From the NCBI GenBank assembly GCA_020721205.1, contig DYNF01000003.1, forward strand, positions 15,038-79,037: a DNA stretch of 64,000 nucleotides, in the 5' to 3' direction. The translations under genes and the position numbers were made by a program. Within the stretch, counting starts at the first letter, position 1; every line of letters starts with the position of its first letter. The notes beneath the pieces are model-generated. The model had not been told where the DNA came from and did no database searches. It saw nothing but the letters and a program-made list of their open reading frames with translations. Of the stretch, positions 43,883 to 63,704 are shown piece after piece. This DNA is from Prochloron sp. SulCav_FS08_3_32_3330. Its GTDB lineage: Bacteria; Cyanobacteriota; Cyanobacteriia; Cyanobacteriales; DYNF01.

Positions 43883-43885
43883 TAA

Positions 43886-43913: not shown

Positions 43914-43961
43914 TTAATTTTCAAAATTAACTTATTTTAATCAACTTAGAAAGTAGCAAAA

Positions 43962-44627: not shown

Positions 44628-44632
44628 AAAAA

Positions 44633-45112: not shown

Positions 45113-45123
45113 ATTAGATAATT

Positions 45124-45582: not shown

Positions 45583-45729
45583 ATCTAAATAAGGGATAAT
45601 TACTTATTGTTTTATAAGTCCTGATTCATCACAATCAAGTTAAAATGTTTAAGATAATTTAGTTTAGAAATTAATTTTTTCTAATCAAAAATATGACAAA
45701 TTTATTCATCATTTAAAAGCTAATTAATC

Positions 45730-46296: not shown

Positions 46297-46513
46297 ATTA
46301 TGTCTAACAAAATCCTCCACATTTTCTTACTCATCAAATCTCCAAATTTTTCAAAAATTCGAGGATTTATTTAAAAAAGTCTTAGGTTATTATATAATCT
46401 TAAAACAATGATAATAGACAATTTGTTAATTTTAAATAACTTGTGATTGTGAAAAAATAAAGCTAATTGTTTATTATCTATTATCCATTATTCAATAAGC
46501 TTGTCGGTATTAA

Positions 46514-48418
46514 ATGCAAACTTGGCAATTTATACAAAATTTATTTATTCCTAAAACTTGGAAACATTGGCTAGGTTTATTTATCTTTGCTTTATTAATC
46601 ACTGTGGCGATCGCCGCTCAAGATTTTTATACTTCTTTAATTAATCTCAGTGGGCAAGGTAAATTCACAATTATTCTGATTATTATTACTTTTTTACTTA
46701 ATGCTACCACTCGCCTATCCTCAGAAATTATTTTTTTAGGAGCTTTAGGAATCCTCTTTTTAAGTGGAATTTTAGATGAAAAAACTGCCCTCAAAGGCTT
46801 TAGTAATGGGGGTTTAATCACCGTAGCGGTATTATATATCGTGGTGGCTGGTTTACAACAAACAGGCACTTTAAGCTGGATCTCTCAACAGGTGTTAGGA
46901 TTACCGAAAACCCAAACAGGAGCGTTATTTCGCCTCCTTTTACCCATAATGGGTTTAAGTGCGTTTCTCAATAATACTCCGGTGGTAGCCATGTTTATCC
47001 CTGTTGTGAGGGAATGGTGTCGGAAATTACGCATTAGCCCGTCAAAATTGATGATTCCGGTTAGTTATGGGGCAATTTTCGGCGGAATGTGTACATTAAT
47101 CGGCACTAGCACCAATTTAGTGGTAAATGGCTTATTAATCGCTCAAACTGACTCCCCGGGCATGGGTTTATTTGATATTACTAAAATTGGTTTACCCTGT
47201 GCGATCATCGGTGCAACGGTGCTTTTATTGGGGCATAAGTGGCTTTTACCCGATCGCAAACCAGTGATTGATACCAGTGAAGATCAGCGTCAATATACGG
47301 TGGAATTTATTGTGACAGAAGGGAGTCCTTTAGCCGGAAAAACTGTCGAAAAAGCAGGATTAAGACATCTTCCCGGCTTATTTTTAGCTGAAATTCAAAG
47401 AGGAGAGCATATATTACCCGCCGTAAGCTCACAAGAAATCTTGGAAGAAAAAGATCAATTAATTTTTATCGGGATAGTAGACTCAATTATTGATTTACAC
47501 CGTTTAAGAGGCATTCAACCTGCGACGGATCAGGTATTTAAACTGGATACCCCTCGACAGGAGCGCTGTTTAGTGGAAGCAGTGGTATCTCATACCTGCC
47601 CCCTCGTGGAAAAAACGATTAGAGAGGGAAAATTTCGCTCTCAATATAACGCCGTTGTTTTAGCTGTGGCGCGTAATGGGGAAAGATTACAGGGGAAAAT
47701 CGGGGATATGATTTTGCGATCGGGGGATACCCTCTTATTAGAGGCACATTCTACCTTTTTAGATCAGCAAAGAATGTCCCAAGATTTTTATTTAGTTAGT
47801 GGTATCCCTAACACAGAGCCGATCCGCCATGAAAAAGCTCCTTTAGCCACTATCATTTTAATTATTATGGTAATTCTTGCTTCTTTTAGCGATTTTGGGA
47901 TGTTAAAAGCCGCCGTTTTAGCCTCAATTATCATGTTAATTACTAAATGTTGCTCTCCTCAACAGGCGATGGGTAACATTGAATGGTCAGTATTAGTGGT
48001 GATCGGGGCGGCTTTAGGCTTAGGAGAGGCTTTAGAAAGCACAGGAGGAGCAGAAGCGATCGCTACTACTTTTATGAGTTTTACGGGGAATAATCCTCTG
48101 ATGGCTTTAATTGTCGTTTATGGGATTACCACTTTCTTAACAGAAATTATTACAAATAATGCGGCGGCGGCGATTATGTTTTCGATTTCTTTATCTTTAG
48201 CTAATAGTTTAGAAGTTGATTATATGCCCTTTATTATTGCAATTATGATCGGTGCATCTGCCAGTTTTGCTACCCCAATCGGTTATCAAACTAATATGAT
48301 GGTTTATGGACCGGGGAGTTATAAATTTACAGATTTTTTCCGAGCGGGTATTCCTTTAAACTTGCTTTTTTGGGGAATTACTGTTATTTTAACCCCGATT
48401 TTTTATCCTTTTAATTAG
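46514..48418 (+). CDS. SLC13/DASS-family anion permease with two central TrkA-C (RCK_C) domains
   Basis: 634 aa. TM-rich halves flank EFIVTEGSPLAGKTV and EAVVSHTCPLVEKTI RCK_C-like modules. Confidence 0.8.
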   Translation: MQTWQFIQNLFIPKTWKHWLGLFIFALLITVAIAAQDFYTSLINLSGQGKFTIILIIITFLLNATTRLSSEIIFLGALGILFLSGILDEKTALKGFSNGGLITVAVLYIVVAGLQQTGTLSWISQQVLGLPKTQTGALFRLLLPIMGLSAFLNNTPVVAMFIPVVREWCRKLRISPSKLMIPVSYGAIFGGMCTLIGTSTNLVVNGLLIAQTDSPGMGLFDITKIGLPCAIIGATVLLLGHKWLLPDRKPVIDTSEDQRQYTVEFIVTEGSPLAGKTVEKAGLRHLPGLFLAEIQRGEHILPAVSSQEILEEKDQLIFIGIVDSIIDLHRLRGIQPATDQVFKLDTPRQERCLVEAVVSHTCPLVEKTIREGKFRSQYNAVVLAVARNGERLQGKIGDMILRSGDTLLLEAHSTFLDQQRMSQDFYLVSGIPNTEPIRHEKAPLATIILIIMVILASFSDFGMLKAAVLASIIMLITKCCSPQQAMGNIEWSVLVVIGAALGLGEALESTGGAEAIATTFMSFTGNNPLMALIVVYGITTFLTEIITNNAAAAIMFSISLSLANSLEVDYMPFIIAIMIGASASFATPIGYQTNMMVYGPGSYKFTDFFRAGIPLNLLFWGITVILTPIFYPFN

Positions 48419-48454
48419 TTATTAGTTATTTGTGTTAATATATAAATCTTTTTT

Positions 48455-48521
48455 CAAAAGTTGGGGATTTTTTTTTAGATCAGCATTTGTTTGTAAGATA
48501 TTCATAAAATCCCCAACTTTG
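48455..48521. terminator. Long hairpin CAAAAGTTGGGGATTT ... AAATCCCCAACTTTG (terminator-family motif)
   Basis: 15-bp stem read directly, downstream of the SLC13 gene. Confidence 0.55.
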
Positions 48522-48554
48522 TATTATTCTAACTTTAATCTGTCCTAAAAAATT

Positions 48555-49139
48555 ATGACTAATTCTCTCTCAATTTTACAACAATCTGTTACTAAAAATA
48601 AACCTAATCCTGAGCAGATTAATCAGGCTTTATTAGAAATAGAAAAAAACTCAAAAAAAAGCAAAGAATCTTATTTATTTCAACAATTATTAGGGACTTG
48701 GCAACTTTACTTTATTACGGGGACAAAAAAAGCGAAAAAAAGAGCAGGAATTGTTTTAGGAAAAGGCTTTTATTTACCTTCTTTTTTTAAAGCGACTCTT
48801 AACTATTCTTTAAATGAAAATCAAGGTAATACAGAAGAATTTATAGCAGGAATTATGAAAAATTCGGTCCAATTTGGTTTAATGAGTTTAACTTTTTCTG
48901 GTTGTGCTAAATTTTTACCTCAAAAAAATATTTTAGCTTTTGATTTTACCCGTATTAATATTGATTTTTTAGGTAAAACTATTTATCAAGGGGAAATAAG
49001 AGGAGGTAAAAATCAAGAGGCTAAATTTTATCAAGAAAAGATTAAAAAACAGGCTTTTTTTCATTATTTTTATCTGGGAGAAAATTTGATTTCAGCAAGG
49101 GGTAAAGGAGGCGGTTTAGCTATCTGGAAAAAAGTCTAA
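48555..49139 (+). CDS. Conserved hypothetical protein
   Basis: 194 aa. LLGTWQLYFITG is reminiscent of fibrillin/lipocalin-like folds, but the family is not assignable. Confidence 0.5.
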   Translation: MTNSLSILQQSVTKNKPNPEQINQALLEIEKNSKKSKESYLFQQLLGTWQLYFITGTKKAKKRAGIVLGKGFYLPSFFKATLNYSLNENQGNTEEFIAGIMKNSVQFGLMSLTFSGCAKFLPQKNILAFDFTRINIDFLGKTIYQGEIRGGKNQEAKFYQEKIKKQAFFHYFYLGENLISARGKGGGLAIWKKV

Positions 49140-49160
49140 TATTCTCAAATAAAATTAGAC

Positions 49161-49331
49161 AATAGGTTTTAGCAATAGGTTTTAGCAATAGGTTTTAGCA
49201 ATAGGTTAAAACCTATTGCTACTTAAACAAAACCCGTCTGCACGGGTTTTTAGCAATAGGTTTTAGCAATAGGTTTTAGCAATAGGTTAAAACCTATTGC
49301 TACTTAAACAAAACCCGTCTGCACGGGTTTT
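49161..49331 (+). repeat. Tandem duplication of a composite unit
   Basis: Each unit is (AATAGGTTTTAGC)3, then hairpin GCAATAGGTT/AAAACCTATTGC, then terminator hairpin AAAACCCGTCTGCACGGGTTTTT. Terminator hairpins at 49229-49251 and 49309-49331. Read directly. Confidence 0.85.
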
Positions 49332-49388
49332 TAGGATAGATTAAACCCATTACTTTACTGTTATTAATTTTCAATTATTTAATTTTTT

Positions 49389-50045
49389 ATGAAACAATTA
49401 GAATCTAATCAATATGGACTTTCTCTCCATACTAATACTCCCCAACTAGGATTAACTATTAATAATTTTGCTGGAGATTATCGCTCTCAAATTTTAGATT
49501 TAGGGCGTGATATCTCTAGTCTTTTACATCAATATTTAATAGATTTTATTTCCCCTCAAACATGGTCAAATATTGCTTTTTTAGCCGTGGCAAAAGGTCC
49601 CGGAGGTTTTACTGGCACAAGAATCGGAATTGTTACAGCGAGGACTATTTCTCAACAGTTAAATATTCCTGTTTATCCTATTTCAAATTTAGCGGCGATC
49701 GCTCATTTTTACCTTAATCAATCCTTAATAAATAAAGATAATTCTCCTACTTTATTAGCGGTGGAAATGAAAGCAGTGAGAGGACAAATTTTTGGCGGAA
49801 TTTATCAAGCAGATTCGCAAAAATTCGGCATAAAAACTTATCTTCAAGATAAGGCTTATACTCCTGAAGAATGGACAGAAATTTTAAATAAATTACCCCA
49901 AAATTATCAAAGAATTTTATCTCCCGAAAATCTTGCCCATACTGGCAATAATATGTTAGAATTGGCTTATTTACAATGGCAACAGGGTAATTTTTATAAT
50001 TGGTCAGAATGTATCCCTTTTTATGGTCAACATCCTGTACAATAA
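49389..50045 (+). CDS. tsaB: tRNA t6A37 threonylcarbamoyltransferase complex dimerisation subunit TsaB
   Basis: AVAKGPGGFTGTRIGIVTARTISQQLNIPVYPISNLAAIA. Confidence 0.85.
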   Translation: MKQLESNQYGLSLHTNTPQLGLTINNFAGDYRSQILDLGRDISSLLHQYLIDFISPQTWSNIAFLAVAKGPGGFTGTRIGIVTARTISQQLNIPVYPISNLAAIAHFYLNQSLINKDNSPTLLAVEMKAVRGQIFGGIYQADSQKFGIKTYLQDKAYTPEEWTEILNKLPQNYQRILSPENLAHTGNNMLELAYLQWQQGNFYNWSECIPFYGQHPVQ

Positions 50046-50100
50046 TCAGTGAAAAGTAATCAGTTAATTAATAATTATCAGTAACTAATAACTAATAAAA

Positions 50101-50781
50101 ATGAGTGAACAAAATCGTCAAGAATTACGTCAAAAAGTGCAACAATTAGCACATCAAGCTATTAATGAAAATAATCCTACCGCTTGGTTTGAAACAGTTT
50201 ATCAAACTTCAAATGGCGATCCAAATCAAATTCCTTGGGCAAAATTAAGCCCTCATTTTGCTTTGGAAATGTGGCTAAAGGAAAAACAAATTTCAGGTAA
50301 AAATAAAAAAGCTTTAGTCATTGGTTGTGGTTTGGGAGATGACGCTGAAATCCTCTCAAAAGTAGGTTTTCAAGTGATCGCTTTTGATGTTTCTCCCTCG
50401 GCGATCGCTTGGTGTCAAACTCGTTTTCCTCACTCTTATGTGGATTATGAGGTAGGCGATCTCTTTGCTGAAAATGAGTCTTGGCGTAAAGAGTTTGATT
50501 TTGTCTTTGAATGCCACACTATTCAAGCTTTACCTTTAAAGGTGCGATCGGAAATCATTGAAAAAACCTCTCAATTTGTGGCTAATAATGGACAATTATT
50601 GATTATTACTAGAATAAGAGACTCAGAAACTCCGCCTCAAGGACCACCTTGGGCATTATCAATGAATGAATTAAATGAATTTGAAAAACAGGGATTAATA
50701 TTAATAGAAAAACAACAATTTAAAACAAAAGAAATGCCAGAAATTACGACTTTAAGATTAGAATATCAAAGAAAAGATTAG
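50101..50781 (+). CDS. Class I SAM-dependent methyltransferase (TPMT-like)
   Basis: Motif I ALVIGCGLGDDAE. VIAFDVSPSAI. Confidence 0.8.
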   Translation: MSEQNRQELRQKVQQLAHQAINENNPTAWFETVYQTSNGDPNQIPWAKLSPHFALEMWLKEKQISGKNKKALVIGCGLGDDAEILSKVGFQVIAFDVSPSAIAWCQTRFPHSYVDYEVGDLFAENESWRKEFDFVFECHTIQALPLKVRSEIIEKTSQFVANNGQLLIITRIRDSETPPQGPPWALSMNELNEFEKQGLILIEKQQFKTKEMPEITTLRLEYQRKD

Positions 50782-51089
50782 CTTTAAATGGATTTAAAAA
50801 ACCCATACCTTATGTTACAAAGCTTAAGACTTGGTTGTCACCGTATCTTTCCTCCCGTAACACTTTCGCGCACGATCGGCACTGCGGGATGCCGATCATT
50901 ATTTAATCGCAGATCAATCAAGTAAACTTAAATTATATTTAAGGAAAACTTTACATTTCTTAGTTTAGTTTAAAAGTGCCAAAAAATTAAGTAATCAATC
51001 TAAAAAGATAAATACTAGAAAGATAAAATTAAGATGAACAAAAAAATTTCCTTGGTATTAAATTTCAACAGAGAAACTTTTAACCCTAA

Positions 51090-52721
51090 TTAAGACTTAA
51101 ATCTTTGTAATAAATCACTAAAAAAGATGCGATTATTTTTAAATAAAAAGTAAAAATAAGTTGCCAGAATAATGATAAAACAAGAATTACCTAAAAAATT
51201 ATAAGTATTAATAATTTGTTGATCATTCCAACCAAATTCTACTAATTGATTCATATCTCCTCCTGCATCATTTTCTCCTCCCCATAAAGTCCCCCAAGGA
51301 ATTGAAACTTCACCTTGATCAATTTGCCACCAAAACCAAAGACTATTCCAAAAAGTAAAAGCCGCACCAAAAACAACCGGAAAACGGTAAAATTCCCAAT
51401 TAAAATATTTAGGAAAAGAAAAGAAAAAACTAACCATTAAAAGAGTACATATATAAAATTCTCCTGCAATTCCGCCAAAATATAATAAGGTGTAAAATGT
51501 TGTTTCAGAAATTAACCAAGTCATTACAAATTGAATAATAACTAGACATACTGCTAATATCATTACCCAAGGTTTTTGCTCTTGTTTACCTTTCCAAAAT
51601 AATAAACCCAAAAGACATAATACTCCAAAGTAAACAAAGAGAGATTTTTCTTCACTAATATTTGTCCAGCCAAAAGGTAAAGGAATAGCTTTATGTCCAC
51701 CTAACCAAGCAACTATAGCATGACCAAATTCATGAAACCAAATATTAATTCCTCTTAACAAAAATTGGATAATTGGTATTACATTCATGAGAATTGCTAA
51801 GATTGATAAAATGGGAAAAATTGCACTATTTTCAATAACTTTAATTACCCCGTCCATTTTTTCTTTTTCAGTAAGTTTTTGTCTGTCTAAAGTTTTTCGC
51901 CAACTAATTTTTTCTTGGGAATTAATACCAAAAATTAAAATGGTTTCTACCATTGTTAAGTGAAAATAATTCAACTGTTTTTTAGTAAGTAAAGTATCAA
52001 TTTTTTGGCTAATGGGCTGAGATTTTGGATAGGATTCTAAATCTAAATAAATTTGGAGTTTTTCTTTGATTAAATTAATTTTTCCCTTAACATCATTGTC
52101 TTGTAAATATTGAGTTAAATTAGTTATGGGATCTATTGTTTTTTGACTTTCTATTTGAGATTCAATAATTGCTTTTTCTTGGAGATGATTTTTAATAGTT
52201 TGGTAAGCTTCTTTGAGAGTAATTAGTTGTTGAGAATTACTGATAGTATTAGTTTGAGATTTTATTTGGGCTTTTATTTGAAAATAGCTTGTTTGTAATT
52301 CTTCAAAAGTGGCATCCAATTCTAAATTTAATTGTTGATAATAGGGTAATAATAAATGATCTTGAGGTGTTATTTTCTCAGTTTGATTCCCTTCAATTTC
52401 TTCTAAAGTAACTGTTTCTTGATTAGCCATAGAAGAATTAAGATTGATCTTTATTTGCCAAATAAAATTATCTATTCCTTCTACTTGATTTTGAATCAAA
52501 ATATCATTAATATTTTCAGGTTGTAATTGAGAAAAAAAATCTTCGATAAATTTTACAGTAGAGTCTTGAGGTAATTTATCTAAAGATTTAAGAAGTAAAA
52601 TTAAAGAATTATCTTTAGAAGTAGCTTGAATCTGAATTGGTTGTTGAGGACAGACTTTCTGTAATAGAGTAGCGATCGCATCAGGATCACCTTTTTTTCC
52701 TATCTGTTTGAGGGAAGTCAT
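51090..52721 (-). CDS. Membrane protein with soluble N-terminal half and C-terminal M50-like HExxH domain
   Basis: HEFGHAIVAWLGGH sits in a TM-rich C-terminal half. The N-terminal half has a degenerate J-like segment YYQQLNLELDATFEELQTSY without HPD. Confidence 0.55.
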   Translation of the reverse strand: MTSLKQIGKKGDPDAIATLLQKVCPQQPIQIQATSKDNSLILLLKSLDKLPQDSTVKFIEDFFSQLQPENINDILIQNQVEGIDNFIWQIKINLNSSMANQETVTLEEIEGNQTEKITPQDHLLLPYYQQLNLELDATFEELQTSYFQIKAQIKSQTNTISNSQQLITLKEAYQTIKNHLQEKAIIESQIESQKTIDPITNLTQYLQDNDVKGKINLIKEKLQIYLDLESYPKSQPISQKIDTLLTKKQLNYFHLTMVETILIFGINSQEKISWRKTLDRQKLTEKEKMDGVIKVIENSAIFPILSILAILMNVIPIIQFLLRGINIWFHEFGHAIVAWLGGHKAIPLPFGWTNISEEKSLFVYFGVLCLLGLLFWKGKQEQKPWVMILAVCLVIIQFVMTWLISETTFYTLLYFGGIAGEFYICTLLMVSFFFSFPKYFNWEFYRFPVVFGAAFTFWNSLWFWWQIDQGEVSIPWGTLWGGENDAGGDMNQLVEFGWNDQQIINTYNFLGNSCFIIILATYFYFLFKNNRIFFSDLLQRFKS

Positions 52722-53575: not shown

Positions 53576-56500
53576 ATGCCGAGAATATTTGATAACATTG
53601 ACCAAAAATTAGTAGAAGGATTAGCATATAGTCTTGATTCGGCTTATAGTGCTGACTTTTGTGTTGGTTATGTAAATTTACGAGGATGGCGTTTAATTGC
53701 TGATAAAATCGAGCATTTTTCAGGGGGCAATAATCAACAATGTCGAGTTTTAATTGGGATGCAAAAATTACCTTCAACTCAACTCTATGAGGAGTTGAAA
53801 ATCCTGAAAACTACAGAAACTGCTATTTCTCAGAAACAAATACCTAATCTAAAAAACTTGATTGTGCGAGAATTTAGAGAACAATTAATGGTAGGTGTTC
53901 CCAGCATTGCTGATGAAAAGGGTTTACAACAATTAAGGCAACAACTTTTAAGCCAAAAAGTAACAGTTAAGCTTCATTTACGTTATCCTCTCCATGCTAA
54001 ACTTTATTTACTCCATAAAAAAGACCAAGATCAACCAATGATCGGTTATTTAGGTAGTAGTAATTTAACTTTTTCTGGCTTAAAAAATCAGGGCGAATTA
54101 AATATTGATGTTTTAGATCATGATGCTACAAATAAGTTACAGGAATGGTTTAACGATCGCTGGAATGATCGCTTTTGTGTTGATATAAGTCAAGAATTAG
54201 CAAATATTATTGACGAAAGTTGGGCTACAGAAAAATTAATTCCTCCCTACTATATTTATCTCAAAATGGCTTATCATCTTTCTCAAGAAGCAAGGGATGG
54301 TTTAAGTCAATACGCTATTCCCTCAGAATTTAAACTATTTGATTTTCAGGAAGCCTCTGTTAAAATTGCCTGTCATCATGTCAACCGCCGAGGGGGTGTC
54401 ATTATTGGGGATGTGGTAGGTTTAGGTAAGACGATGATAGGCACAGCGATCGCCCGTATCTTAGAGGAAGATTTAGGTTATAGTACATTAATAATTTGTC
54501 CAAAAAATCTAGTGGCGATGTGGGAAAGTTATCGAGATAATTATGGTTTAAGGGCAAAAATTTTGTCTATTAGTATGGTGGAAAAAGAGTTAGAAAATAT
54601 ACCCGCTCGATTTAGATTAGTTTTAATTGATGAGAGTCATAATTTACGCAATCGTGACGGAAAAAGATACGCTTATATTAAAGATTATATTGAACAAAGT
54701 GGTAGTCGTTGTATTTTGTTAACGGCGACTCCCTATAATAAAACTTACCTTGATTTATCGGCACAATTAAGATTATTTATTAGAGAAGATCAAGACTTAG
54801 GAATTAGACCAGAAGAACTATTAAGAAATAGTAAATTTTCGGTGCAATATCCTGAGATTAGTCCTCGCACTTTAAAAGCTTTTGAAAAAAGCGAATATTC
54901 CGAAGATTGGCAACAATTAATGAGTAAATATATGGTGCGTCGTACTCGTAGTTTTATTCGGGCTAATTATGCTCAATTAGACATAGAAAAAAACAAGAAA
55001 TATTTAGAATTTGCTGATGGTACTCGTTCTTATTTTCCAGATCGTCTTCCGAAAACTGCTACTTTTAAACTAGGAGAAAAGGATCCCTATTCTCAACTTT
55101 ATTCTCCTCAAGTAGTAGATATTATTAGTAATTTGAATTTACCTCGTTATGCTTTAGGGAGTTATCAATTAACTACTATTTCTGAGAAATTATTAACAAC
55201 AAAAGAGAAAGATTTATTAGATAGTTTATCCCGTGCCGGAAGAAATTTAATCGGCTTTTGTCGCACTAATTTATTTAAAAGATTAGAAAGCAGTGGTTAT
55301 GCTTTTCTTGAGTCTATTGAAAGACATATTTTAAGAAATTATATCTATTTATATGCCATAGAATCAAACGTAGATATTCCTATTGGTACTCAAGATGTGG
55401 ACTTATTTTCTACCAGTTTAAATGACCAAGATCCGGATTCTACTTTAAGTAATAACCTAGATATTGATGATGAAAATAATGATGAAGATGAAGATGATTT
55501 AGAAGGTTTTGAAACCTTAGAAAAACAAGAATTAATCTATCAAGAAAAAGCCCAACAAGTTTATCAAGTTTATCAAGATAAATATCAAAAAAGATTTAAG
55601 TGGATTAGACCTAATTTATTTAATCAAGATTTAATCAAACATTTACGAGAAGATGCTCATAATCTCTTAACAATATTAAATAATGCTCCCCAATGGACAA
55701 CAGAAAATGACCAAAAACTCTTAGCTTTATATGACTTAATTACTAAAACTCATCCCGATGAAAAAATATTAATCTTCTCTCAATTTGCTGATACGGTTAA
55801 TTACTTAGGAGAAAAATTAACTAATTTAGACTTAAAAAACTTTGCTCGATGCTCGGGTAAATCAGAAAATCCTACTATTCTCGCTCAAAGATTTAGCCCT
55901 AAAAGTAATAATAAATATTTCCCCCCCTCCCAAGAATTAAGAGTTTTAATTGCAACAGATGTACTATCAGAAGGGCAAAATTTACAAGATTGTCGCATTA
56001 TCGTTAATTATGACTTACCTTGGGCGATTATCCGTTTAATTCAAAGGGCTGGAAGGGTAGATCGCATCGGGCAAAAAGCCTCCGAAATACTCTGTTATTC
56101 CTTTTTGCCGGAGGAAGGGGTGGAAAAATTGATTAATCTGAGAGGAAGACTCGGCGATCGCCTGAAAGAAAATGCGGAAGTTGTTGGCACTGATGAAATC
56201 TTTTTTGAAGGTGGCAATGATCAAGTAATCTTAGATTTATACCATGAAAAAGCAGGTATTTATGATGAGGCAGAAGACTCAGAAGTTGATTTAGTTTCTG
56301 AGGCTTTGAGTATTTGGGAGTCTGCAAAAGAAAAATATCCTGATATTGCTCAAAAAATTGAACAATTACCTAATGTTATTTATTCTACTCGTCACCATCC
56401 CCCCGAAGAAATTAATCCTCAAGGAGTTTTAATGTATATGCGTACTAGCGATGGGGTGGATGCTTTAGCTTATGTAGATGAAAATGGGAAAAGTGTTACT

Positions 56501-56962
56501 CAATCTCAAAGTCGCATTTTAAGACTCGCCCGTTGTGAATTGGAAACTGAGGCGATTAAGAGGAATCCGGCACATTTTGATTTAGTGAATAAAGGAGCAG
56601 AAATTATTGCTCAACAACAGAAAAAAATGGCAGGAGGAGGGAAGTTGGGAAGCCCTAACAGTGCAAGGGCAAAAACCTATAATCGTCTGAGTAATTATCT
56701 CCAAGAGATTAAAACCCATACTCCTATTTTAGCTAAAGGGCAACAATGGGATAATTTAACTAAAGCGGTGGAAAATATCTATAATTATCCTCTCAGTGAA
56801 AGGGCAATTACTCGTTTAAATCGTCAATTAAGAAGTGGGATTAGGGATCAACAATTAGCGGATTTAGTATTATCTTTGTGGGAAGATCAAGCTTTATTTG
56901 TCACATACGAAGATCAACAAATTAGAGACAGTCAAATTATTTGTTCATTAGGATTATTTTAA
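53576..56962 (+). CDS. HKD (PLD-family) nuclease domain fused to SNF2-family helicase
   Basis: N-terminal HAKLYLL...GSSNLT HKD motif. Helicase motifs GLGKT, LIDESHNLRN, LLTATP, SEGQNLQD, QRAGRVDRIGQ. Architecture matches the CDD class PLDc_N_Snf2_like. Confidence 0.88.
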   Translation: MPRIFDNIDQKLVEGLAYSLDSAYSADFCVGYVNLRGWRLIADKIEHFSGGNNQQCRVLIGMQKLPSTQLYEELKILKTTETAISQKQIPNLKNLIVREFREQLMVGVPSIADEKGLQQLRQQLLSQKVTVKLHLRYPLHAKLYLLHKKDQDQPMIGYLGSSNLTFSGLKNQGELNIDVLDHDATNKLQEWFNDRWNDRFCVDISQELANIIDESWATEKLIPPYYIYLKMAYHLSQEARDGLSQYAIPSEFKLFDFQEASVKIACHHVNRRGGVIIGDVVGLGKTMIGTAIARILEEDLGYSTLIICPKNLVAMWESYRDNYGLRAKILSISMVEKELENIPARFRLVLIDESHNLRNRDGKRYAYIKDYIEQSGSRCILLTATPYNKTYLDLSAQLRLFIREDQDLGIRPEELLRNSKFSVQYPEISPRTLKAFEKSEYSEDWQQLMSKYMVRRTRSFIRANYAQLDIEKNKKYLEFADGTRSYFPDRLPKTATFKLGEKDPYSQLYSPQVVDIISNLNLPRYALGSYQLTTISEKLLTTKEKDLLDSLSRAGRNLIGFCRTNLFKRLESSGYAFLESIERHILRNYIYLYAIESNVDIPIGTQDVDLFSTSLNDQDPDSTLSNNLDIDDENNDEDEDDLEGFETLEKQELIYQEKAQQVYQVYQDKYQKRFKWIRPNLFNQDLIKHLREDAHNLLTILNNAPQWTTENDQKLLALYDLITKTHPDEKILIFSQFADTVNYLGEKLTNLDLKNFARCSGKSENPTILAQRFSPKSNNKYFPPSQELRVLIATDVLSEGQNLQDCRIIVNYDLPWAIIRLIQRAGRVDRIGQKASEILCYSFLPEEGVEKLINLRGRLGDRLKENAEVVGTDEIFFEGGNDQVILDLYHEKAGIYDEAEDSEVDLVSEALSIWESAKEKYPDIAQKIEQLPNVIYSTRHHPPEEINPQGVLMYMRTSDGVDALAYVDENGKSVTQSQSRILRLARCELETEAIKRNPAHFDLVNKGAEIIAQQQKKMAGGGKLGSPNSARAKTYNRLSNYLQEIKTHTPILAKGQQWDNLTKAVENIYNYPLSERAITRLNRQLRSGIRDQQLADLVLSLWEDQALFVTYEDQQIRDSQIICSLGLF

Positions 56963-57204
56963 AGTTTGGAGTTTATAATGCGATTTTTAAAGTCTTCTTC
57001 AAACATTAAATTAGCTCTTTCTCTTAGTTCAGTTTGCTTTTTTCCTTGAGGTAAAATAGCAATACCATAAAGGATCTCTGCTTGAGTTATTGTAGTTGTA
57101 AATAAATTATTTATATTTTGTTGTGCTGTCCAATTATAGACATTTTCTGAACATTTATTACCTTTCATTAGTTCGGAAATAATGTTAGTATCTAAAATTA
57201 TCAT
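56959..57204 (-). pseudogene. Truncated VapC/FitB-like PIN toxin (81 aa, lacks the C-terminal acidic residues)
   Basis: MIILDTNIISELM...TQAEILYG covers only the first two of the four PIN catalytic acid positions. The 3' end overlaps the helicase stop codon. Confidence 0.6.
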
Positions 57205-57440
57205 TAGTTAAAGTTAGGGGGTTGACGCATTTTATCTCTAGTAATTAGGGGCATTTCTACTTCTTCTAAATCCCTAAATCTTTGGGTAATTCTTTGGGCT
57301 AGGTTTAAAGAATTTTGGTTTTCTTGGGTTAAACAATTACGCAAGATTTCGGTTATTTCTTGTTCTAATGTATGCCCTTTTTTCTGAGCTTGTTGTTGGA
57401 GTTTGTCGGTTAATTCATCATCAAGGTTGATTGTTAGCAT
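57204..57440 (-). CDS. RHH-type antitoxin (VapB/FitA-like)
   Basis: MLTINLDDELTDKLQQQAQKKGHTLEQEITEILRN. 1-nt overlap with the PIN gene. Confidence 0.7.
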   Translation of the reverse strand: MLTINLDDELTDKLQQQAQKKGHTLEQEITEILRNCLTQENQNSLNLAQRITQRFRDLEEVEMPLITRDKMRQPPNFN

Positions 57441-57530
57441 AATTAATTACTCCTTTAAAACTTGATCTTGATGATATAATATAGCTGTAAATAATAATCT
57501 TGTCAATTTACTTAAAACAAAAAACAAAAT

Positions 57531-57740
57531 ATGTCTAATCTACAAACCTTAGAAAATAGCTCATTAATTGAGCAAAGATTAAGCAATTTAGAACAGGAAT
57601 TATCAACAAGTCAAAAAATCTTAAGCTCTAATTTTCAAGAATCTTACTGGTGGTTAAAAATTGCCGGAACTTTTGCAAATGATCCTACTTTTGATGAAGT
57701 TGAAAACCTCTGTCAAGAGTGGCGTAAATCGGCTTATTAA
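57531..57740 (+). CDS. Small conserved hypothetical (antitoxin-like, orphan)
   Basis: 69 aa. The AGTFANDPTFDEV...WRKS motif recurs in small cyanobacterial proteins usually paired with toxins (from memory, unverified). Confidence 0.45.
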   Translation: MSNLQTLENSSLIEQRLSNLEQELSTSQKILSSNFQESYWWLKIAGTFANDPTFDEVENLCQEWRKSAY

Positions 57741-57768
57741 AAACTAATTAAAACTAGAAGAATAAACC

Positions 57769-58077
57769 ATGAAAACAACTCACTATTTAACAACAAAAAT
57801 ACAAAAAGGAAATCGCTTAGATTTATACCTTCCTGAATTGGCTGAAGGGCAAAATGTAGAAGTCATTATTATTGTATCAGAAAATCAAACTATTAATAAT
57901 AGTGAAAATAATTTAGCACAATCAAAAAATTCAGAGCCAAATATGATCTCAAAATCATTAGCAGAGCGCCGTCAATTGATGGCACAACAGGCAGAAGCTA
58001 TGCAAAAATATTATGAAGAAGATCAATCATGGCGAGAGTGGGTTAATTTAGATTTAGGAGAGATATATGAGTATTAA
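57769..58077 (+). CDS. Putative antitoxin partner of MazF
   Basis: 102 aa. 11-nt overlap with the mazF-like gene. Confidence 0.55.
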   Translation: MKTTHYLTTKIQKGNRLDLYLPELAEGQNVEVIIIVSENQTINNSENNLAQSKNSEPNMISKSLAERRQLMAQQAEAMQKYYEEDQSWREWVNLDLGEIYEY

Positions 58078-58429
58078 ACCTCAAAGGGGGGAAATTTGGT
58101 TAGTTAACTTAGATCCTACCATTGGAGCAGAAATCAAAAAAACTCGACCTGTGGTTATTGTTAGCTCTAATACTTTGGGAAAATTACCATTAAAATTAGT
58201 TGTGCCAATAACTGATTGGAAAGACTCTTTTATTAATAATTTATGGCACGTTAAAATTAATCCTAACTCCCATAATGGATTAACGAAAAAATCCGTTGCC
58301 GATGCTTTACAAACTAGAAGTATTGATCTAACAAGATTTATTCAAAAGTTAGGAAATTTATCCTCCGAAAAGTTACAACAAATAAATACTGCTATTGTTA
58401 ATCTAATTGAATATGAACATGAAAATTAA
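58067..58429 (+). CDS. mazF: MazF/PemK-family endoribonuclease toxin
   Basis: PQRGEIWLVNLDPTIGAEIKKTRPVVIVS. Confidence 0.88.
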   Translation: MSIKPQRGEIWLVNLDPTIGAEIKKTRPVVIVSSNTLGKLPLKLVVPITDWKDSFINNLWHVKINPNSHNGLTKKSVADALQTRSIDLTRFIQKLGNLSSEKLQQINTAIVNLIEYEHEN

Positions 58430-61400
58430 TCGCAAAAACATTACTAAACATCTCGATCGCCTTGAGTTTGAATCCCTTTTTATTGAAGAATTAGGTTGGG
58501 ATTATCCCGAAGATAATACCGATAAATCTATTAATATTGATGAACAAATATTCACTTTAACTCCCATTGCTGAAAAACGGGGTTTTAATGTGTTTCTTTG
58601 CCTATTAGAAAATCAATCAATTCCCCTTTCTCCTACTCTCAAAAAAATAGATCAAGAAGTTAGTAAATATTCTTATGAACATTTTATTATTTATGTTTCA
58701 GAAATTGATAAAACTCAAAAATGGCAATGGATCAAAAAAGAAGTCAATAAACCTTTAGCTAATCGCACTGTGGAATATTCTACCCAGAAGAAAGAGGCTT
58801 TATTACAGGTATTAGATACCATTGCTGTTGACTTAGAGGAAGAAGAAAATCTTAATTTACTTGAAGTAAAATCAAAAGCAAAAAAAGCCTTTGATGTGGA
58901 TAAAGTTACTAAGAAATTCTATGATAAATTTAAGAAAGAACATAGTCAATTTTTAAGTTTTATTGAAGGCATAAATATAGATTTTGATCAAGAATGGTAT
59001 GCTTCTTTAATACTTAATCGTCTCATGTTTGTTTATTTTATCCAGAAAAAAGGCTTTTTAGATGGTAATATTAATTATCTACGAGATAAACTAAAAGCCC
59101 TCACCCCCCCAACCCCCCTCTCCCAAAGGGCGAGGGGGGAGTCAGACTCCTCTCAATTCTCCCCTCTCCCCGTGGGAGAGGGGCTGGGGGTGAGGGTTAA
59201 ATTTTACTCTTTCTATCGTTACTTTTTATTAAGATTATTTCATGATGGTTTAGGTAGTCAAAATCGCACCCCTGAATTAGATAATTTATTAGGAAAAGTA
59301 CCCTATTTAAACGGCGGTTTATTTGAAGTTCATCCTTTAGAAATTAAGTATCCTAATATTAATATTAAAGATTCTGCTTTTGAGCAAATTTTTACCTTTT
59401 TTGATCAATATAATTGGCATTTAGATGAGCGCCCTTTAAAACAAGATAATGAAATTAATCCTGATGTTTTAGGTTACATTTTTGAGAAATATATTAACCA
59501 AAAACAAATGGGGGCATATTATACTAAAGAAGATATTACTGAATATATTAGTAAAAACTGCATTATTCCCTATTTATTTGATACGGTTAAACAAGATTTA
59601 TTAGGCTATTTATCACCAGAGGAAGTTAATCATAATTTAGGTTTTTATTTACTCCAAGAAAATCCCGATCGCTATATTTATTCAGCAGTTAAAAAAGGTG
59701 TAGATTTACCTTTACCTGATGATATTACTAAAGGAATAAATGATGTTTCTCAACGTAATAATTGGAATATTCCTGCGGATGAAAATTATGGTTTACCTAC
59801 TGAATTATGGCGAGAATTTATTGCAAGGAGAAATCGCTGTTTAGAAATAAGAGAAAAATTAACTAAGGGTGAAATTACGAATATTAATGATTTAATTACC
59901 TATAATCTTAATATTCGTCAATTTGCTCAAGATGCTATTTCTAATCTTAATTCTCCCTTAATTCTCAATATTTTCTATCAGAAATTAGCCTCAATGTCTA
60001 TCTTAGATCCTACCTGTGGCAGTGGTGCTTTTTTATTTTCCGCCTTAAATATTCTTGAGCCTCTTTATGATGCTTGTTTAGAAAAAATGCAGGAATTTAC
60101 CCTCACCCCCCCAACCCCCCTCTCCCAAAGGGCGAAGGGGGAGTTAAGTCACTCACCCGGAGAGCGGGTGGAAAAGTGGGAAATTTCACCTGAGTTGGCA
60201 CAAAAAATGAAGGAAATTGCCCGTAAATTAAGGAAAGAAACCACTCCTAGCGAAAAAATCCTTTGGGAAGCATTAAAAAATCGCCAATTATGTCAGCAAA
60301 AATTTAGAAGACAACATCCAATCGGTGTTTTTGTTGTTGATTTTTATTGTCATGAAAAAAAATTAATTATTGAAATTGATGGCAGTATTCACAATTTACC
60401 TGAGCAAAAAATATTAGATCGTCAACGTCAAGAATTATTAGAATCTTTAGGGTTACGTTTCTTAAGAATTAGTAGTAAACAAGTAGAAACCGACTTACGA
60501 GAAACCTTAAAAATCATCGAAAAAAACCTTTTTTTATCCCCAGAATCAAACTCCCCCCTCGCCTCTTGGGAGAGGGGGGCTGGGGGGGTGAGGGCTAAAT
60601 TTCAAGGCATTTTAGCCAATATTAGAAGTCATAGTCATAATAGTAATGAAAATTCAGCGCGTAAATATTTTATCCTCAAAAATATCATACTTAATAATCT
60701 TTTTGGGGTGGATATTATGGAGGAAGCGACAGAAATTTGTAAGTTACGTTTATTCCTTAAATTAGCTTCTCAAGTTACCTCTAATCCTAATAATAAAAAT
60801 TATGGAATTGAGCCTTTACCTGATATTGATTTTAATATCCGTTGTGGTAATAGTTTAGTCGGTTTTGCTAATTATCAGGAAGTGGAAAAAGCCGTTAAAG
60901 GTGATAGTCAAACTAAGTTAGATTTATTTGATGATATGAGTATTATCAATGATAAAGCTAAAGCTGTGAGTGAGGTTTATCAAACTTTTAGATCTATGCA
61001 AACTCAATCGGATAATGGGATTAATTTTCGGGAAACTAAACAGAAATTACAGGCAAGTTTAGCTGGTTTAAATGATGAATTAAATCAATATTTAGCAAGG
61101 GAATATGGGATAGATATTAAGAAGAAAAAAGAGTTTGAAAAATGGTTAATTTCTCATCAACCTTTCCACTGGTTTACGGAGTTTTATTCGATTATTAATC
61201 ATGGAGGTTTTGATGTGATTATTGGTAATCCTCCTTATGTTGAATATAAAGATATTAAAACAAATTATCAACCTATTAATTATATTACAAAAACTTGCAG
61301 TAATCTTTTTGTATATATTTTAGAAAAATGTACATTTTTAAGTCATCAAAATTCTTATATTGGTATGATTATTCCTTTAAGTGCATTTAGCACTGATAGA

Positions 61401-62237
61401 ATGACACCATTAATTAATCATATTAAACAAACATCTTTAGAATTATATTTAGCTAATTTTAGTTGGCGACCCGGAAAACTTTTTGATGGTGTTAATTTAC
61501 AATTAACAATTTTACTTCAAAAAATGGGCTACAAAAATAATAACATTTATACAACTAAATATATTTTATGGGAATCTGAAACTCGTCCTCAATTATTTTC
61601 TAAAATTGAATTTACTGCAACTAATGATAATAGATTATCAGGCTCTATTCCAAAATTAGGTAATAAAAAAGGAGCTTTAATATTAGATAAGTTAAGAAAA
61701 GAAAAAAGCGAAATAGGACATTATTTTACAAAAAAATCAAATAATATTGTATTTTATAGAAGGGGAGGATTATATTGGAAGGTTTTTGTAGATTTTCCTA
61801 CAGAATCAAGTGAAGAAAAAATCATTTATCTTTTAGAAAATATTGACAAATATTTAATAGTTGCTGTTTTAAGTAGTAATCTTTGGTTTTGGTATTTTAC
61901 GATAACATCTGATTGTCGTCACTTAGGAAATAGAGATATTAATACTTTTCCACTTGATATTAAAAACTTATCCAATGAAATATACAAAAAACTTGCTTTT
62001 TTAGGAGAAAAATATGTCAATGACTTAAAATTAAACGCCGAAAATACAATAAGAGTTTATAAAGGGAAAAAATCAGTAGAATGTTTATCATTTAAAGTAA
62101 ATCAATCAAAACCAATAATAGATGAAATAGATAAAATATTAGCAGAACATTATGAATTTACAGAAGAAGAATTAGATTTTATAATTAATTATGATATTAA
62201 ATATCGGATGGGTAAAGAGTTGGGAGAAGAAGATTAA
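58407..62237 (+). CDS. Large Eco57I/COG1002-type N6-adenine (amino) DNA methyltransferase with TaqI_C-like specificity domain, carrying two in-frame TIR-element insertions
   Basis: Motif I ILDPTCGSGAFL (about 60000-60040), LFGVDI, motif IV NPPY (61226-61237). C-terminus EEELDFIINYD. Likely true start at ATG 58419 (MKINRK), as in the paralog remnant at 10640. Confidence 0.85.
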   Translation: MNMNMKINRKNITKHLDRLEFESLFIEELGWDYPEDNTDKSINIDEQIFTLTPIAEKRGFNVFLCLLENQSIPLSPTLKKIDQEVSKYSYEHFIIYVSEIDKTQKWQWIKKEVNKPLANRTVEYSTQKKEALLQVLDTIAVDLEEEENLNLLEVKSKAKKAFDVDKVTKKFYDKFKKEHSQFLSFIEGINIDFDQEWYASLILNRLMFVYFIQKKGFLDGNINYLRDKLKALTPPTPLSQRARGESDSSQFSPLPVGEGLGVRVKFYSFYRYFLLRLFHDGLGSQNRTPELDNLLGKVPYLNGGLFEVHPLEIKYPNINIKDSAFEQIFTFFDQYNWHLDERPLKQDNEINPDVLGYIFEKYINQKQMGAYYTKEDITEYISKNCIIPYLFDTVKQDLLGYLSPEEVNHNLGFYLLQENPDRYIYSAVKKGVDLPLPDDITKGINDVSQRNNWNIPADENYGLPTELWREFIARRNRCLEIREKLTKGEITNINDLITYNLNIRQFAQDAISNLNSPLILNIFYQKLASMSILDPTCGSGAFLFSALNILEPLYDACLEKMQEFTLTPPTPLSQRAKGELSHSPGERVEKWEISPELAQKMKEIARKLRKETTPSEKILWEALKNRQLCQQKFRRQHPIGVFVVDFYCHEKKLIIEIDGSIHNLPEQKILDRQRQELLESLGLRFLRISSKQVETDLRETLKIIEKNLFLSPESNSPLASWERGAGGVRAKFQGILANIRSHSHNSNENSARKYFILKNIILNNLFGVDIMEEATEICKLRLFLKLASQVTSNPNNKNYGIEPLPDIDFNIRCGNSLVGFANYQEVEKAVKGDSQTKLDLFDDMSIINDKAKAVSEVYQTFRSMQTQSDNGINFRETKQKLQASLAGLNDELNQYLAREYGIDIKKKKEFEKWLISHQPFHWFTEFYSIINHGGFDVIIGNPPYVEYKDIKTNYQPINYITKTCSNLFVYILEKCTFLSHQNSYIGMIIPLSAFSTDRMTPLINHIKQTSLELYLANFSWRPGKLFDGVNLQLTILLQKMGYKNNNIYTTKYILWESETRPQLFSKIEFTATNDNRLSGSIPKLGNKKGALILDKLRKEKSEIGHYFTKKSNNIVFYRRGGLYWKVFVDFPTESSEEKIIYLLENIDKYLIVAVLSSNLWFWYFTITSDCRHLGNRDINTFPLDIKNLSNEIYKKLAFLGEKYVNDLKLNAENTIRVYKGKKSVECLSFKVNQSKPIIDEIDKILAEHYEFTEEELDFIINYDIKYRMGKELGEED
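59098..59196 (+). mobile_element. 99-bp GC-rich TIR-only element (MITE form) inside the methyltransferase ORF, in frame
   Basis: Arms CCCTCACCCCCCCAACCCCCCTCTCCCAAAGGGCGAGGGGGGAG (59098-59141) and CCCCTCTCCCCGTGGGAGAGGGGCTGGGGGTGAGGG (59161-59196) are imperfect reverse complements. Encodes LTPPTPLSQRARGESDSSQFSPLPVGEGLGVR. Confidence 0.8.
60100..60594 (+). mobile_element. 495-bp TIR element encoding a DUF559 (Vsr-fold) endonuclease, inserted in frame in the methyltransferase
   Basis: Same arms as the 99-bp element (60100-60143, 60551-60594). Internal translation MKEIARKLRKETTPSEKILWEALKNRQLCQQKFRRQHPIGVFVVDFYCHEKKLIIEIDGSIHN...LGLRFLRISSKQV. Confidence 0.8.
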
Positions 62238-62356: not shown

Positions 62357-62569
62357 ATGACATTAACTCAACTAATACCAACTATTCATAACTTAAATCG
62401 TAGTGATAAAATACAACTATTACAAATAATAGTCAATGATTTAGCCGAAGAAGAAAAAAACTTAGGCTTAAAGCATAACGAAGATTATCCTATTTATTCC
62501 CCATTAAACGCTTTTTCTGCGGCAGATACCTTATTAAAATTATTAGAAGAACATCAAAAAAATGATTAA
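62357..62569 (+). CDS. Small hypothetical protein, partner of the retropepsin-like gene
   Basis: 70 aa. 8-nt overlap with the next ORF. Confidence 0.5.
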   Translation: MTLTQLIPTIHNLNRSDKIQLLQIIVNDLAEEEKNLGLKHNEDYPIYSPLNAFSAADTLLKLLEEHQKND

Positions 62570-62978
62570 ATCTCAAAGATTTTCTTATCAACAAATTAAC
62601 CAAAGAATAGGAGAAGCAGGTTATCTACCTTTTCTTCCTATTACATTAATTAATGATCATAATTCATTAACAGTTTCAGGATTATTAGATAGCGGTGCAA
62701 CAGTTAATGTATTACCCTATAATTTAGGCAGACAATTAGGCTTAGAATGGGAAAAACAAACAATTTCTATGAATCTAACCGGAAATTTAGCTAATTACGA
62801 ATCAAGAGCAGTTTTATTAACAGGAAAAATTAACGATTTAGCACCTTTCAATTTAGCATTTGCTTGGACAAAAGCCGAAAATATCTCTTTAATATTAGGA
62901 CAAGTTAATTTTTTTATAGAATTTGATGTTTGTTTTTATCGTTCTCAATTATTATTTGAAATAACACCTAAACGATGA
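62562..62978 (+). CDS. Retropepsin-like (clan AA) aspartic protease
   Basis: LLDSGATVNVLP active-site motif. 138 aa. Confidence 0.7.
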   Translation: MIKSQRFSYQQINQRIGEAGYLPFLPITLINDHNSLTVSGLLDSGATVNVLPYNLGRQLGLEWEKQTISMNLTGNLANYESRAVLLTGKINDLAPFNLAFAWTKAENISLILGQVNFFIEFDVCFYRSQLLFEITPKR

Positions 62979-63591: not shown

Positions 63592-63704
63592 CTATAGATA
63601 AAATATTAGGGGAACATTACGGATTTACAGATGAAGAATTAGATTTTATCATTAATTATGATATTAAATATCGGATGGGTAAAGAGTTAGGAGAAGAAGA
63701 TTAA
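63592..63704 (+). pseudogene. Third copy of the methyltransferase 3' end (last about 37 codons plus stop), detached remnant
   Basis: Aligns to 62124-62237 at about 92 percent identity by eye. Encodes IDKILGEHYGFTDEELDFIINYDIKYRMGKELGEED, and begins 1 nt after the hicA stop. Confidence 0.85.

Follow-up and report, generated by a model that had tools for sequence, protein, structure and literature searches.

In a window of 64,000 nucleotides (nt) from Prochloron sp. SulCav_FS08_3_32_3330, a helicase-nuclease gene (P0001) and a DNA methylase gene (P0002) were found on the same strand. The window is the whole stretch of DNA that was analysed, and coordinates refer to it unless a contig or locus is named. 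We consider it probable, at roughly two chances in three, that the two genes form one restriction-modification-like defence unit split over two polypeptides. An ATP-dependent restriction-modification-like pair had been proposed in the initial annotation of this region. The proposal is supported by the domain content of both proteins, by their conserved catalytic motifs and by the linkage of the two genes in other genomes. The module would be a widespread variant of ATP-dependent restriction-modification that has no name, with DNA cutting as a predicted activity. Its two genes and their main parts are as follows.

53576..56962, + strand: P0001, fusion of an HKD (PLD) nuclease and a RapA-like Swi2-Snf2 helicase, a "Res-like" motor nuclease of 1128 amino acids (aa) (Pfam, PADLOC)
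53993..54064, + strand: single HKD nuclease motif of P0001, H140-A-K142 ... G160-S-S-N163 (regular expression on the translation)
54419..54640, + strand: helicase motif I (GLGKT, Walker A, aa 282-286) to motif II (DESH, aa 352-355) of P0001 (translation motifs and alignment)
56042-56074, + strand: helicase motif VI of P0001, QRAGRVDRIGQ, aa 823-833 (invariant in the homologue alignment)
58419..62237, + strand: P0002, gamma-class N6-adenine DNA methyltransferase, "Mod-like", with a C-terminal recognition region (Pfam, PADLOC)
58419..58856, + strand: family-specific N-terminal domain of P0002, ~146 aa (AlphaFold2, homologue alignment)
60015..60035, + strand: motif I of P0002, CGSGAFL, aa 537-543 within LDPTCGSGAFL, S-adenosylmethionine binding (invariant in the family alignment)
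61227..61238, + strand: motif IV of P0002, NPPY, aa 941-944 (invariant in the family alignment)

The helicase-nuclease

P0001 had been described as an open reading frame (ORF) of 1128 aa with an N-terminal single HKD motif and a complete SNF2 core, and its coordinates, length, Pfam domains and motifs all agreed with that description. Pfam matches covered PLDc_2/RE_NgoFVII (aa 90-199), SNF2-rel_dom/ResIII (aa 332-494) and Helicase_C (aa 714-832). Eleven homologues, both cyanobacterial and non-cyanobacterial, were aligned. Residues H140, K142 and G160-T165 were invariant among them, as were GLGKT, DESH and motif VI.

The top PADLOC model was "HKD+Snf2" (C3a139, 165 bits, aa 4-874). The PADLOC models for DrmD, BrxH, HmaA and DpdE matched in the C-terminal helicase lobe only, and all NCBIfam matches scored far under their cut-offs. 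By sequence profile, the nearest solved relatives were RapA and the Sulfolobus Snf2 ATPase; SauUSI was not among the relatives in this search of solved structures. Pfam searches recognised no DNA-modification reader domain in P0001.

A second, distant HKD-Snf2 gene is present in the same genome (C38:303-3575, 1090 aa, 25-30% identity to P0001). It scored 126 bits against the PADLOC "HKD+Snf2" model and lies alone on a 4-kb contig.

The methylase and its N-terminal domain

The ORF of P0002 opens at a TTG codon at 58407 (1276 aa). Its start is likely the ATG at 58419 (MKINR), as suggested by the alignment of homologues. Pfam placed it in the families MmeI_Mtase (motif I) and Eco57I (with GNPPY). 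The order of motifs, with DPTCGSGAF (aa 534-542) followed by GNPPY (aa 940-944) and then ~270 C-terminal residues, is that of gamma-class enzymes. The annotation of a same-strand gamma-class methylase of 1276 aa was thus correct (ORF 58407-62237, + strand, motif I before NPPY). A "TaqI_C-like specificity end" had also been assigned, but TaqI_C was not detected on the last 267 aa of P0002, even at E ≤ 1. Entropy along 51 close methylase homologues, a set biased to near relatives, revealed no hypervariable recognition segment. Phage records held no homologue of P0002.

Judging from the alignments, the HKD/GSSN, GLGKT, DESH and motif VI stretches of P0001 and motifs I and IV of the methylase are under purifying selection.

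The first ~146 aa of P0002 form a domain of their own. The AlphaFold2 model of this domain, with a predicted local distance difference test score (pLDDT) of 89, consists of two helices, three strands, a helix, three strands and a final helix. The domain matched nothing in Pfam and, by sequence profile, nothing in the PDB. Foldseek searches against the PDB gave weak matches only (top E-value 1e-3, template modelling score ≤0.43). These included Cas4, the SPARDA nuclease, Hjc and a tRNA-splicing endonuclease, some of them with the restriction endonuclease fold. Residues L20, G26, W27, K53, H88, W102 and E142 are invariant, and no D...(D/E)xK nuclease triad was found among the conserved residues. 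The weak matches hint at a possible fold of the restriction endonuclease type that would be catalytically dead. The family of this domain comprised 1476 clusters at 50% identity, with full-length proteins of ~1040-1190 aa, and the domain stood at the very N-terminus in 149 of the 150 best matches listed.

We propose that this domain may serve as a docking or licensing part for the helicase-nuclease. A modular coupling role would fit a paralogue in the same genome that lacks both the domain and a neighbouring helicase-nuclease. This second family methylase (C181:25689-28697, 1002 aa, 47-62% identity to P0002) is without the N-terminal 153 residues and keeps the methylase motifs, and no helicase-nuclease gene lies beside it. 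Three insertions of another repeat type ("PPFKRGEKE...GGLGGS") interrupt it in frame.

PADLOC assigned P0002 to "REase_MTase_IIG" (PDLC03628) with 1101 bits, in three pieces. The match is broken because two in-frame insertions interrupt P0002; the uninterrupted relative P0085 matched the same model from one end to the other, with 1142 bits. For P0002 the "Type IIG" label is probably mistaken, as it once was for PglX. It is doubtful because the N-terminal domain is without catalytic residues and the nuclease sits in the HKD domain of the partner. As far as its sequence tells, the methylase itself contains no nuclease, and cutting would fall to that partner domain.

Linkage and distribution of the pair

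Co-occurrence of HKD-Snf2 proteins with this methylase family had been put forward as a test of the pair, and the result was strongly positive. A full-length helicase-nuclease was found in 41 of 401 cyanobacterial genomes, and a methylase gene lay within 6 kb on the same contig in 36 of these 41. The remaining five were contig ends or unclear cases. In most such genomes, the methylase piece that passed the strict threshold was the first ~230 residues. The methylase N-terminal domain was detected in 33 genomes, 31 of which had the helicase-nuclease (Fisher odds ratio 555, p 3e-35, both uncorrected for phylogeny). All five informative P0001 relatives found by protein pattern also had an adjoining methylase, and in L016 the two genes are just 16 nt apart. 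The distribution of the pair is patchy (30 of 156 genera). The Prochloron locus itself holds the two parts that define the module, an HKD-Snf2 gene and a nearby methylase with the family-specific N-terminal domain.

The pair was also found outside the cyanobacteria. Five of seven non-cyanobacterial methylase homologues had a full helicase-nuclease immediately upstream, with gaps of 2, 10, 293, 257 and 2 nt. One of the other two had a truncated helicase-nuclease of 441 aa (L023), and one had none. Abutting pairs (gaps of 1-10 nt) occurred in Chloroflexi, Omnitrophota, Desulfobacterota and Actinomycetota. The pair was present on 26 plasmid records. On a Pelobacter plasmid the genes abut, with the stop at 9330 and the start at 9331, and a Rhodococcus plasmid carries the pair as well. 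On both plasmids the annotation reads only "helicase-related protein" and "DNA methyltransferase".

A small third gene of 150-226 aa, similar to DprA/Smf (PF02481), was found in five of the seven non-cyanobacterial loci (L022, L023, L024, L025 and L026). It overlaps or directly follows the methylase gene in three loci and lies 2-7 kb off in two. The five copies are one family (35-46% identity). By tblastn, the gene was absent from the Prochloron genome and from the cyanobacterial loci. Since it is present in five of seven non-cyanobacterial loci and absent in cyanobacteria, we regard it as a lineage-dependent accessory and not as a universal component. The description of a minimal two-gene pair therefore holds for the cyanobacterial loci, but outside the cyanobacteria the DprA-like third gene is usual.

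The orthologous locus of Synechocystis

An orthologous locus lies on plasmid pSYSX of Synechocystis PCC 6803 (43696-51129). It encodes a helicase-related protein, a VapB-like protein, VapC and a "DNA methyltransferase" of 1100 aa. P0001 shares 55% identity over its full length with the helicase-related protein (slr6047 by gene order). The identity of P0002 to the methylase Slr6050 is 55% in the N-terminal half and 44% in the C-terminal half. The toxin-antitoxin pair in between is ssr6048/slr6049 (VapBC; PMC4963859). The two loci share gene order, strand and a toxin-antitoxin pair in the equivalent gap, and they are orthologous gene for gene. They differ in that Slr6050, at 1100 aa, is without either insertion. 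Further, VapBC is intact and co-directional in Synechocystis, in contrast to a VapBC remnant plus MazEF here, and the Synechocystis locus is plasmid-borne, whereas the one studied here shares its contig with housekeeping genes.

Hagemann et al. tentatively assigned slr6050 (M.Ssp6803IV) to the motif GA(m6A)GGC (PMC6105098). This motif can be methylated on one strand only, and such sites are necessarily hemimethylated. The slr6050 knockout never segregated fully, a weak similarity of Slr6050 to the HsdR_N nuclease domain was reported, and the neighbouring helicase gene was not mentioned (PMC6105098). The natural, though unproven, reading of the failed segregation is that the methylase would protect against its cognate nuclease. 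No paper linking Slr6050 to slr6047 was found.

Passenger genes in the gap

The two genes had been described as split by 1.45 kb of toxin-antitoxin modules. The gap is 1445 nt long and holds five small ORFs, with toxin-antitoxin genes among them, so the spacing stood; the toxin-antitoxin genes as a feature of the system did not, as they are variable passengers. Besides an ORF of 69 aa on the + strand, the gap holds the following genes.

56959..57204, - strand: truncated PIN (VapC/FitB-like) toxin remnant, 81 aa, passenger (Pfam PIN profile positions 1-59 of 120)
57204..57440, - strand: RHH (FitA-like) antitoxin, 78 aa, passenger (Pfam FitA-like_RHH)
57769..58077, + strand: ORF of 102 aa, presumed MazF antitoxin, passenger (no Pfam match; overlaps the mazF start)
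58067..58429, + strand: MazF/PemK toxin, 120 aa, passenger (Pfam PemK_toxin, E 4e-26)

The 102-aa ORF may be the antitoxin partner of MazF. It is kept in equal position, at 81% identity, in the related locus L011. The mazF stop overlaps the methylase start, and a related MazF fills the equivalent slot in L010 and L011. The top promoter-like site of the region lies just upstream of the RHH gene (57506-57478, - strand; consensus match only). A scan for promoters and terminators gave counts no better than in shuffled sequence.

In Synechocystis and the other related loci, the same slot is filled by different cassettes:

Synechocystis: VapBC
this window and L011: VapBC remnant and MazEF
L010: Phd-MazF
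L015: MNT-HEPN
L014: MNT
L031: DUF4258-DUF2283
L029: two Uma2 genes
L038 and L037: VapBC, MazE and a DUF2887/DUF4351 protein

Because the cassettes vary among cyanobacteria and the two main genes abut in other phyla, we consider the toxin-antitoxin genes as passengers outside the system. A Uma2-family gene annotated as "putative restriction endonuclease" (188 aa) is also found elsewhere in the window (45730-46296), Uma2 being the family that fills the gap of L029.

Insertions in the methylase gene

P0002 had been called a giant methylase. Its length is as described, but the size is owed to two in-frame insertions, and relatives have ~1097 aa. Neither insertion is part of the system.

59098..59196, + strand: GC-rich inverted-repeat insertion of 99 nt inside P0002, in frame (33 codons)
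60100..60594, + strand: inverted-repeat element of 495 nt with DUF559 (Vsr-like endonuclease), in frame between motifs I and II

The 99-nt insertion has a guanine-cytosine (GC) content of 70%, compared with 30% for the methylase gene. In the 495-nt element, DUF559 was recognised by Pfam (aa 600-707) and by a match to PDB 3hrl, and the arms are 46 nt long and 91% complementary. About 30 matches to the arms were found in the genome, counting both orientations, on ~16 contigs. The two insertions belong to one family of GC-rich inverted-repeat elements and are absent from Slr6050 and other relatives. The length of each is a multiple of three, and neither contains a stop. Another member of the methylase family, P0074, also carries DUF559.

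One arm match coincides with the contig end (C143:79022-79046) and probably caused the assembly break. Stand-alone DUF559 ORFs resembling the element were seen at G206:C1:4932978-4933439 and G134:C1:47692-48102, 1 kb and 5 kb from DUF499 genes, maybe by chance.

Genome surroundings

The window corresponds to positions 15038-79037 of contig C143, which ends 38 nt past it and is part of an assembly of 4.73 Mb. Judging by the relatives found, the cyanobacterium is near Geminocystis and Cyanobacterium. The sequencing runs that hold the window sequence are of metagenome DNA only. Upstream of the pair are housekeeping genes, encoding a CitMHS transporter, a TsaD-family protein, a TPMT-like methyltransferase, an M50-like membrane protein, a peptidase M15, UvrC and DnaX. 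Downstream are small cassettes and then the contig end.

Downstream of the pair (62357-62978), an ORF of 70 aa overlaps a retropepsin-like aspartic protease ORF of 138 aa. They match the PADLOC candidates PDC-M52A (E 4e-6) and PDC-M52B (E 7e-51). The last 36 codons of the methylase gene are repeated downstream, after small cassettes, at 63594-63701 (C143:78631-78738) with 92% identity. A similar repeat of the methylase end was found in a related locus (L010:9126-9233). This looks like a cassette insertion at the 3' end of the gene with duplication of that end.

Proposed mechanism and alternative explanations

In DUF499-centred BREX-related systems of Type 2, the effector consists of an N-terminal HKD domain and a Swi2/Snf2 helicase (PMC12839542). 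The Type-2 system has now been characterised as MANTIS (formerly Gao_RL; MtsA-D) (bioRxiv 10.64898/2026.09.23.753747). Its PLD-SF2 protein MtsD forms a dimer that contains one PLD site, and restriction needs the Walker A and HKD residues of MtsD and favours inverted unmethylated sites (bioRxiv 10.64898/2026.09.23.753747). The system also requires a DUF499 ATPase (MtsA) and a DUF3780 protein (MtsB) (bioRxiv 10.64898/2026.09.23.753747).

For the pair described here, we infer cleavage, dimerisation, the logic of site orientation and the docking role of the methylase N-terminal domain. The methylase would recognise a short, probably asymmetric site through its C-terminal region and N6-methylate one adenine per site, thereby marking the cell's own DNA. 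At unmethylated sites, its N-terminal domain would recruit or license the motor-nuclease. The Swi2/Snf2 motor of P0001 would then travel along the DNA using ATP. The single HKD half-site would pair with that of a second P0001 copy to give one PLD active site, and the DNA would be cut. As each P0001 holds half a PLD site, cutting should need two motor-nucleases to meet. Only DNA that carries unmethylated sites would then be cleaved, and type III, type ISP and MANTIS systems follow the same logic.

Several observations weigh against one unit of this kind. P0001 and P0002 cannot share one transcript in this window, because the convergent RHH-PIN gene pair on the - strand intervenes. A 165-codon insertion sits within the catalytic domain of the methylase, and this copy of the methylase may for that reason be inactive. 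The full-length AlphaFold2 model of P0001, built on the 11-sequence alignment, was poor (pLDDT 56, predicted template modelling score 0.32). The likeness of P0001 to SauUSI and MtsD is therefore one of domain order. DUF499 was present in 19 of the 41 genomes with the pair compared with 46 of 360 others (odds ratio 5.9, p 1e-6; uncorrected for phylogeny). The behaviour of slr6050 is a further difficulty. Deletion of a type III methylase gene is not toxic, since the methylase is needed for targeting. A clean deletion of the MANTIS methylase is tolerated for the same reason (bioRxiv 10.64898/2026.09.23.753747), and the authors of the Synechocystis study read the non-segregation of slr6050 as "essential" (PMC6105098). 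The slr6050 result therefore fits our model only through dilution in a polyploid cell or if the nuclease can also act without the methylase.

The enrichment of DUF499 makes a helper acting in trans conceivable. The pair could then belong to a MANTIS-like or Type-2 BREX-related system with a DUF499 loader and a co-factor encoded elsewhere, and alone it would neither methylate nor restrict. P0001 does have the architecture of the Type-2 effector, HKD plus RapA-like Swi2/Snf2 (PMC12839542), and the genome holds one DUF499 (PF04465) gene, an orphan of 1074 aa on another contig, among housekeeping genes (C152:8544-11768). We find this explanation unlikely. DUF499 adjoined the pair in none of the 19 genomes holding both and in none of the seven annotated non-cyanobacterial loci (L021-L027), and 22 of the 41 genomes with the pair are without it. 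The enrichment is corrected neither for phylogeny nor for genomes rich in defence systems. DUF3780 (PF12635) had no match in the genome, with a control search that was silent too, and none was listed in the seven annotated loci. The methylases also differ, MtsC being alpha-class (DPPY) and P0002 a gamma-class (NPPY) enzyme of the Eco57I/PglX-like kind. As read by eye from translations, the orphan DUF499 AAA+ gene is flanked by a PcrA/UvrD-like helicase gene on one side and by small ORFs on the other; secA is found farther downstream. Orphan DUF499 genes of ~1080 aa occur in many cyanobacteria.

Alternatively, the two genes could be independent neighbours, the methylase a self-contained Type IIG enzyme, the class given to it by PADLOC and REBASE-style profiles, and the HKD-Snf2 protein a stand-alone nuclease, for example a modification-dependent one like SauUSI. 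SauUSI has an equal domain order and works alone, and the fit of P0085 to PDLC03628 from end to end, the 1101 bits of P0002 and the HsdR_N similarity of Slr6050 (PMC6105098) would suit a Type IIG enzyme. The linkage is far above chance, however (36/41, odds ratio 555), and the genes nearly abut across phyla. The N-terminal domain has no acidic-lysine triad, Pfam match or confident structural match, P0001 has no recognisable modification reader, and PglX proteins, once listed as Type IIG, were later reclassified. Independence is thus very unlikely. Hardly credible is a role outside defence, in which an epigenetic regulator methylase would act with a RapA-like remodeller on host transcription or repair. 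RapA is the closest solved motor, slr6050 behaves as an essential gene and the window copy stands beside housekeeping genes. Yet the patchy occurrence (30/156 genera), the frequent location on plasmids (26 records) and the neighbouring defence and toxin-antitoxin genes speak against it, and a conserved HKD nuclease motif would have no role in such a model.

The window copy could also be decaying or silenced, with the methylase inactivated by the DUF559 element and the motor-nuclease harmless, since its targeting would require the methylase. The methylase gene does carry two mobile insertions, and a truncated PIN gene abuts the helicase gene; both would agree with decay. Decayed copies are known elsewhere, as one with stop codons (G178) and the 441-aa remnant in L023, and the genome itself has the N-terminally truncated paralogue at C181. 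We nevertheless judge decay improbable here: neither reading frame is broken over its 3.4 or 3.8 kb, in a genome of 30% GC, the insertions are in frame and stop-free, and all catalytic motifs are kept. The large insertion lies in a stretch between motifs I and II whose length varies among relatives and may be tolerated, and DUF559 is also present in the family member P0074.

A defence unit of two polypeptides thus remains our preferred explanation. With somewhat less than even odds, we would go further and regard the pair, along with the DprA-like gene in those loci that have it, as a class of its own within ATP-dependent restriction-modification, one that does without a loader. Here, the PglX/Eco57I-like methylase would mark self DNA and directly license a dimeric PLD-Swi2/Snf2 nuclease through its catalytically dead N-terminal domain, and the gap would be, in cyanobacteria, a preferred landing slot for at least seven kinds of selfish cassette.

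If the model is true, a module present in about one in ten cyanobacterial genomes, in other phyla and on plasmids has been mis-filed: PADLOC scores its methylase as a single-gene "Type IIG" system, and public annotation calls the partner a "helicase-related protein". Among known relatives of the MANTIS- and DISARM-type methylation defences, the module would be the simplest, having no loader ATPase, and it would offer a clean system for studying PLD-Snf2 licensing. It would also explain the undeletable plasmid gene slr6050 in Synechocystis. Restriction barriers of such a kind bear on the genetic tractability of cyanobacteria.

Comparison with known systems

In the literature, no named two- or three-gene system of HKD, Snf2, Eco57I and DprA components was found, only DUF499-centred systems, MANTIS and Hma. 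The two-gene form had been called mechanistically uncharacterised, and this agrees with the literature: no paper naming or testing it was found, and wet-lab data concern only the Synechocystis methylase orthologue.

No recognisable DISARM or BREX partners had been seen in the window, and the same proved true of the whole genome. DUF1998/MZB (PF09369) had no match in it, with matches in 8 of 14 genomes in the control search, and PglZ (PF08665) had none either, with matches in two genomes in the control search. Membership in DISARM was rejected, as the genome has no DUF1998/MZB of DrmA/DrmB and the scores of DISARM models were far under the cut-offs. Class 1 DISARM (DrmA, DrmB, DrmC, DrmD, DrmMI) shares with the pair a Snf2 helicase, a large adenine methylase (with weak DrmMI matches) and a PLD nuclease, as in DrmC. 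The likeness of P0001 to DrmD amounted to 131 bits with NCBIfam NF038317, for which the cut-off is 610. In contrast to class 1 DISARM, one polypeptide here holds both the PLD domain and the Snf2 motor. BREX was rejected for the lack of PglZ in the genome; PglX models scored ≤49 bits, with cut-offs of 400-900.

The domain order of P0001, a single-HKD PLD domain followed by SF2/Swi2-Snf2, is that of MtsD, and self-marking by adenine methylation is common to the pair and MANTIS. For the restriction of unmethylated DNA by a dimeric PLD motor nuclease, MANTIS is the best experimental model. MtsC, however, is an alpha-class DPPY enzyme with a central recognition domain, whereas P0002 is gamma-class (NPPY), with the recognition region at its C-terminus and an N-terminal domain of its own. 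With a methylase of another class and no DUF499 at the locus, the pair was not assigned to MANTIS.

The Type IIG enzymes (Eco57I, MmeI family) resemble P0002 in having an N-terminal domain, a helical spacer, a gamma-class methylase and a C-terminal recognition region. The N-terminal domain of P0002 differs in matching no nuclease family, and a separate motor-nuclease gene nearly always accompanies the methylase gene. Type IIG membership was rejected, since the N-terminal domain has no catalytic PD-(D/E)xK and DUF559 is an insertion specific to this copy.

The pair has in common with type III (Mod and Res, e.g. EcoP15I) and Type ISP systems (LlaGI, LlaBIII) a methylase that recognises the site and an ATP-driven SF2 motor-nuclease. 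Asymmetric, hemimethylated sites would be expected in all of them, as is the GAAGGC of the orthologue, and so would cutting when two motors meet. Here, however, the nuclease is an N-terminal HKD/PLD domain and not PD-(D/E)xK, and the motor is of the Swi2/Snf2 (RapA-like) kind. The Mod methylase of type III is beta-class, in contrast to the gamma-class Eco57I/PglX-like enzyme here, and the nuclease of Res is C-terminal. With an N-terminal HKD nuclease and a gamma-class methylase, the pair was not placed in type III, which it resembles in function only. It differs from Type ISP in that its functions are carried by two polypeptides.

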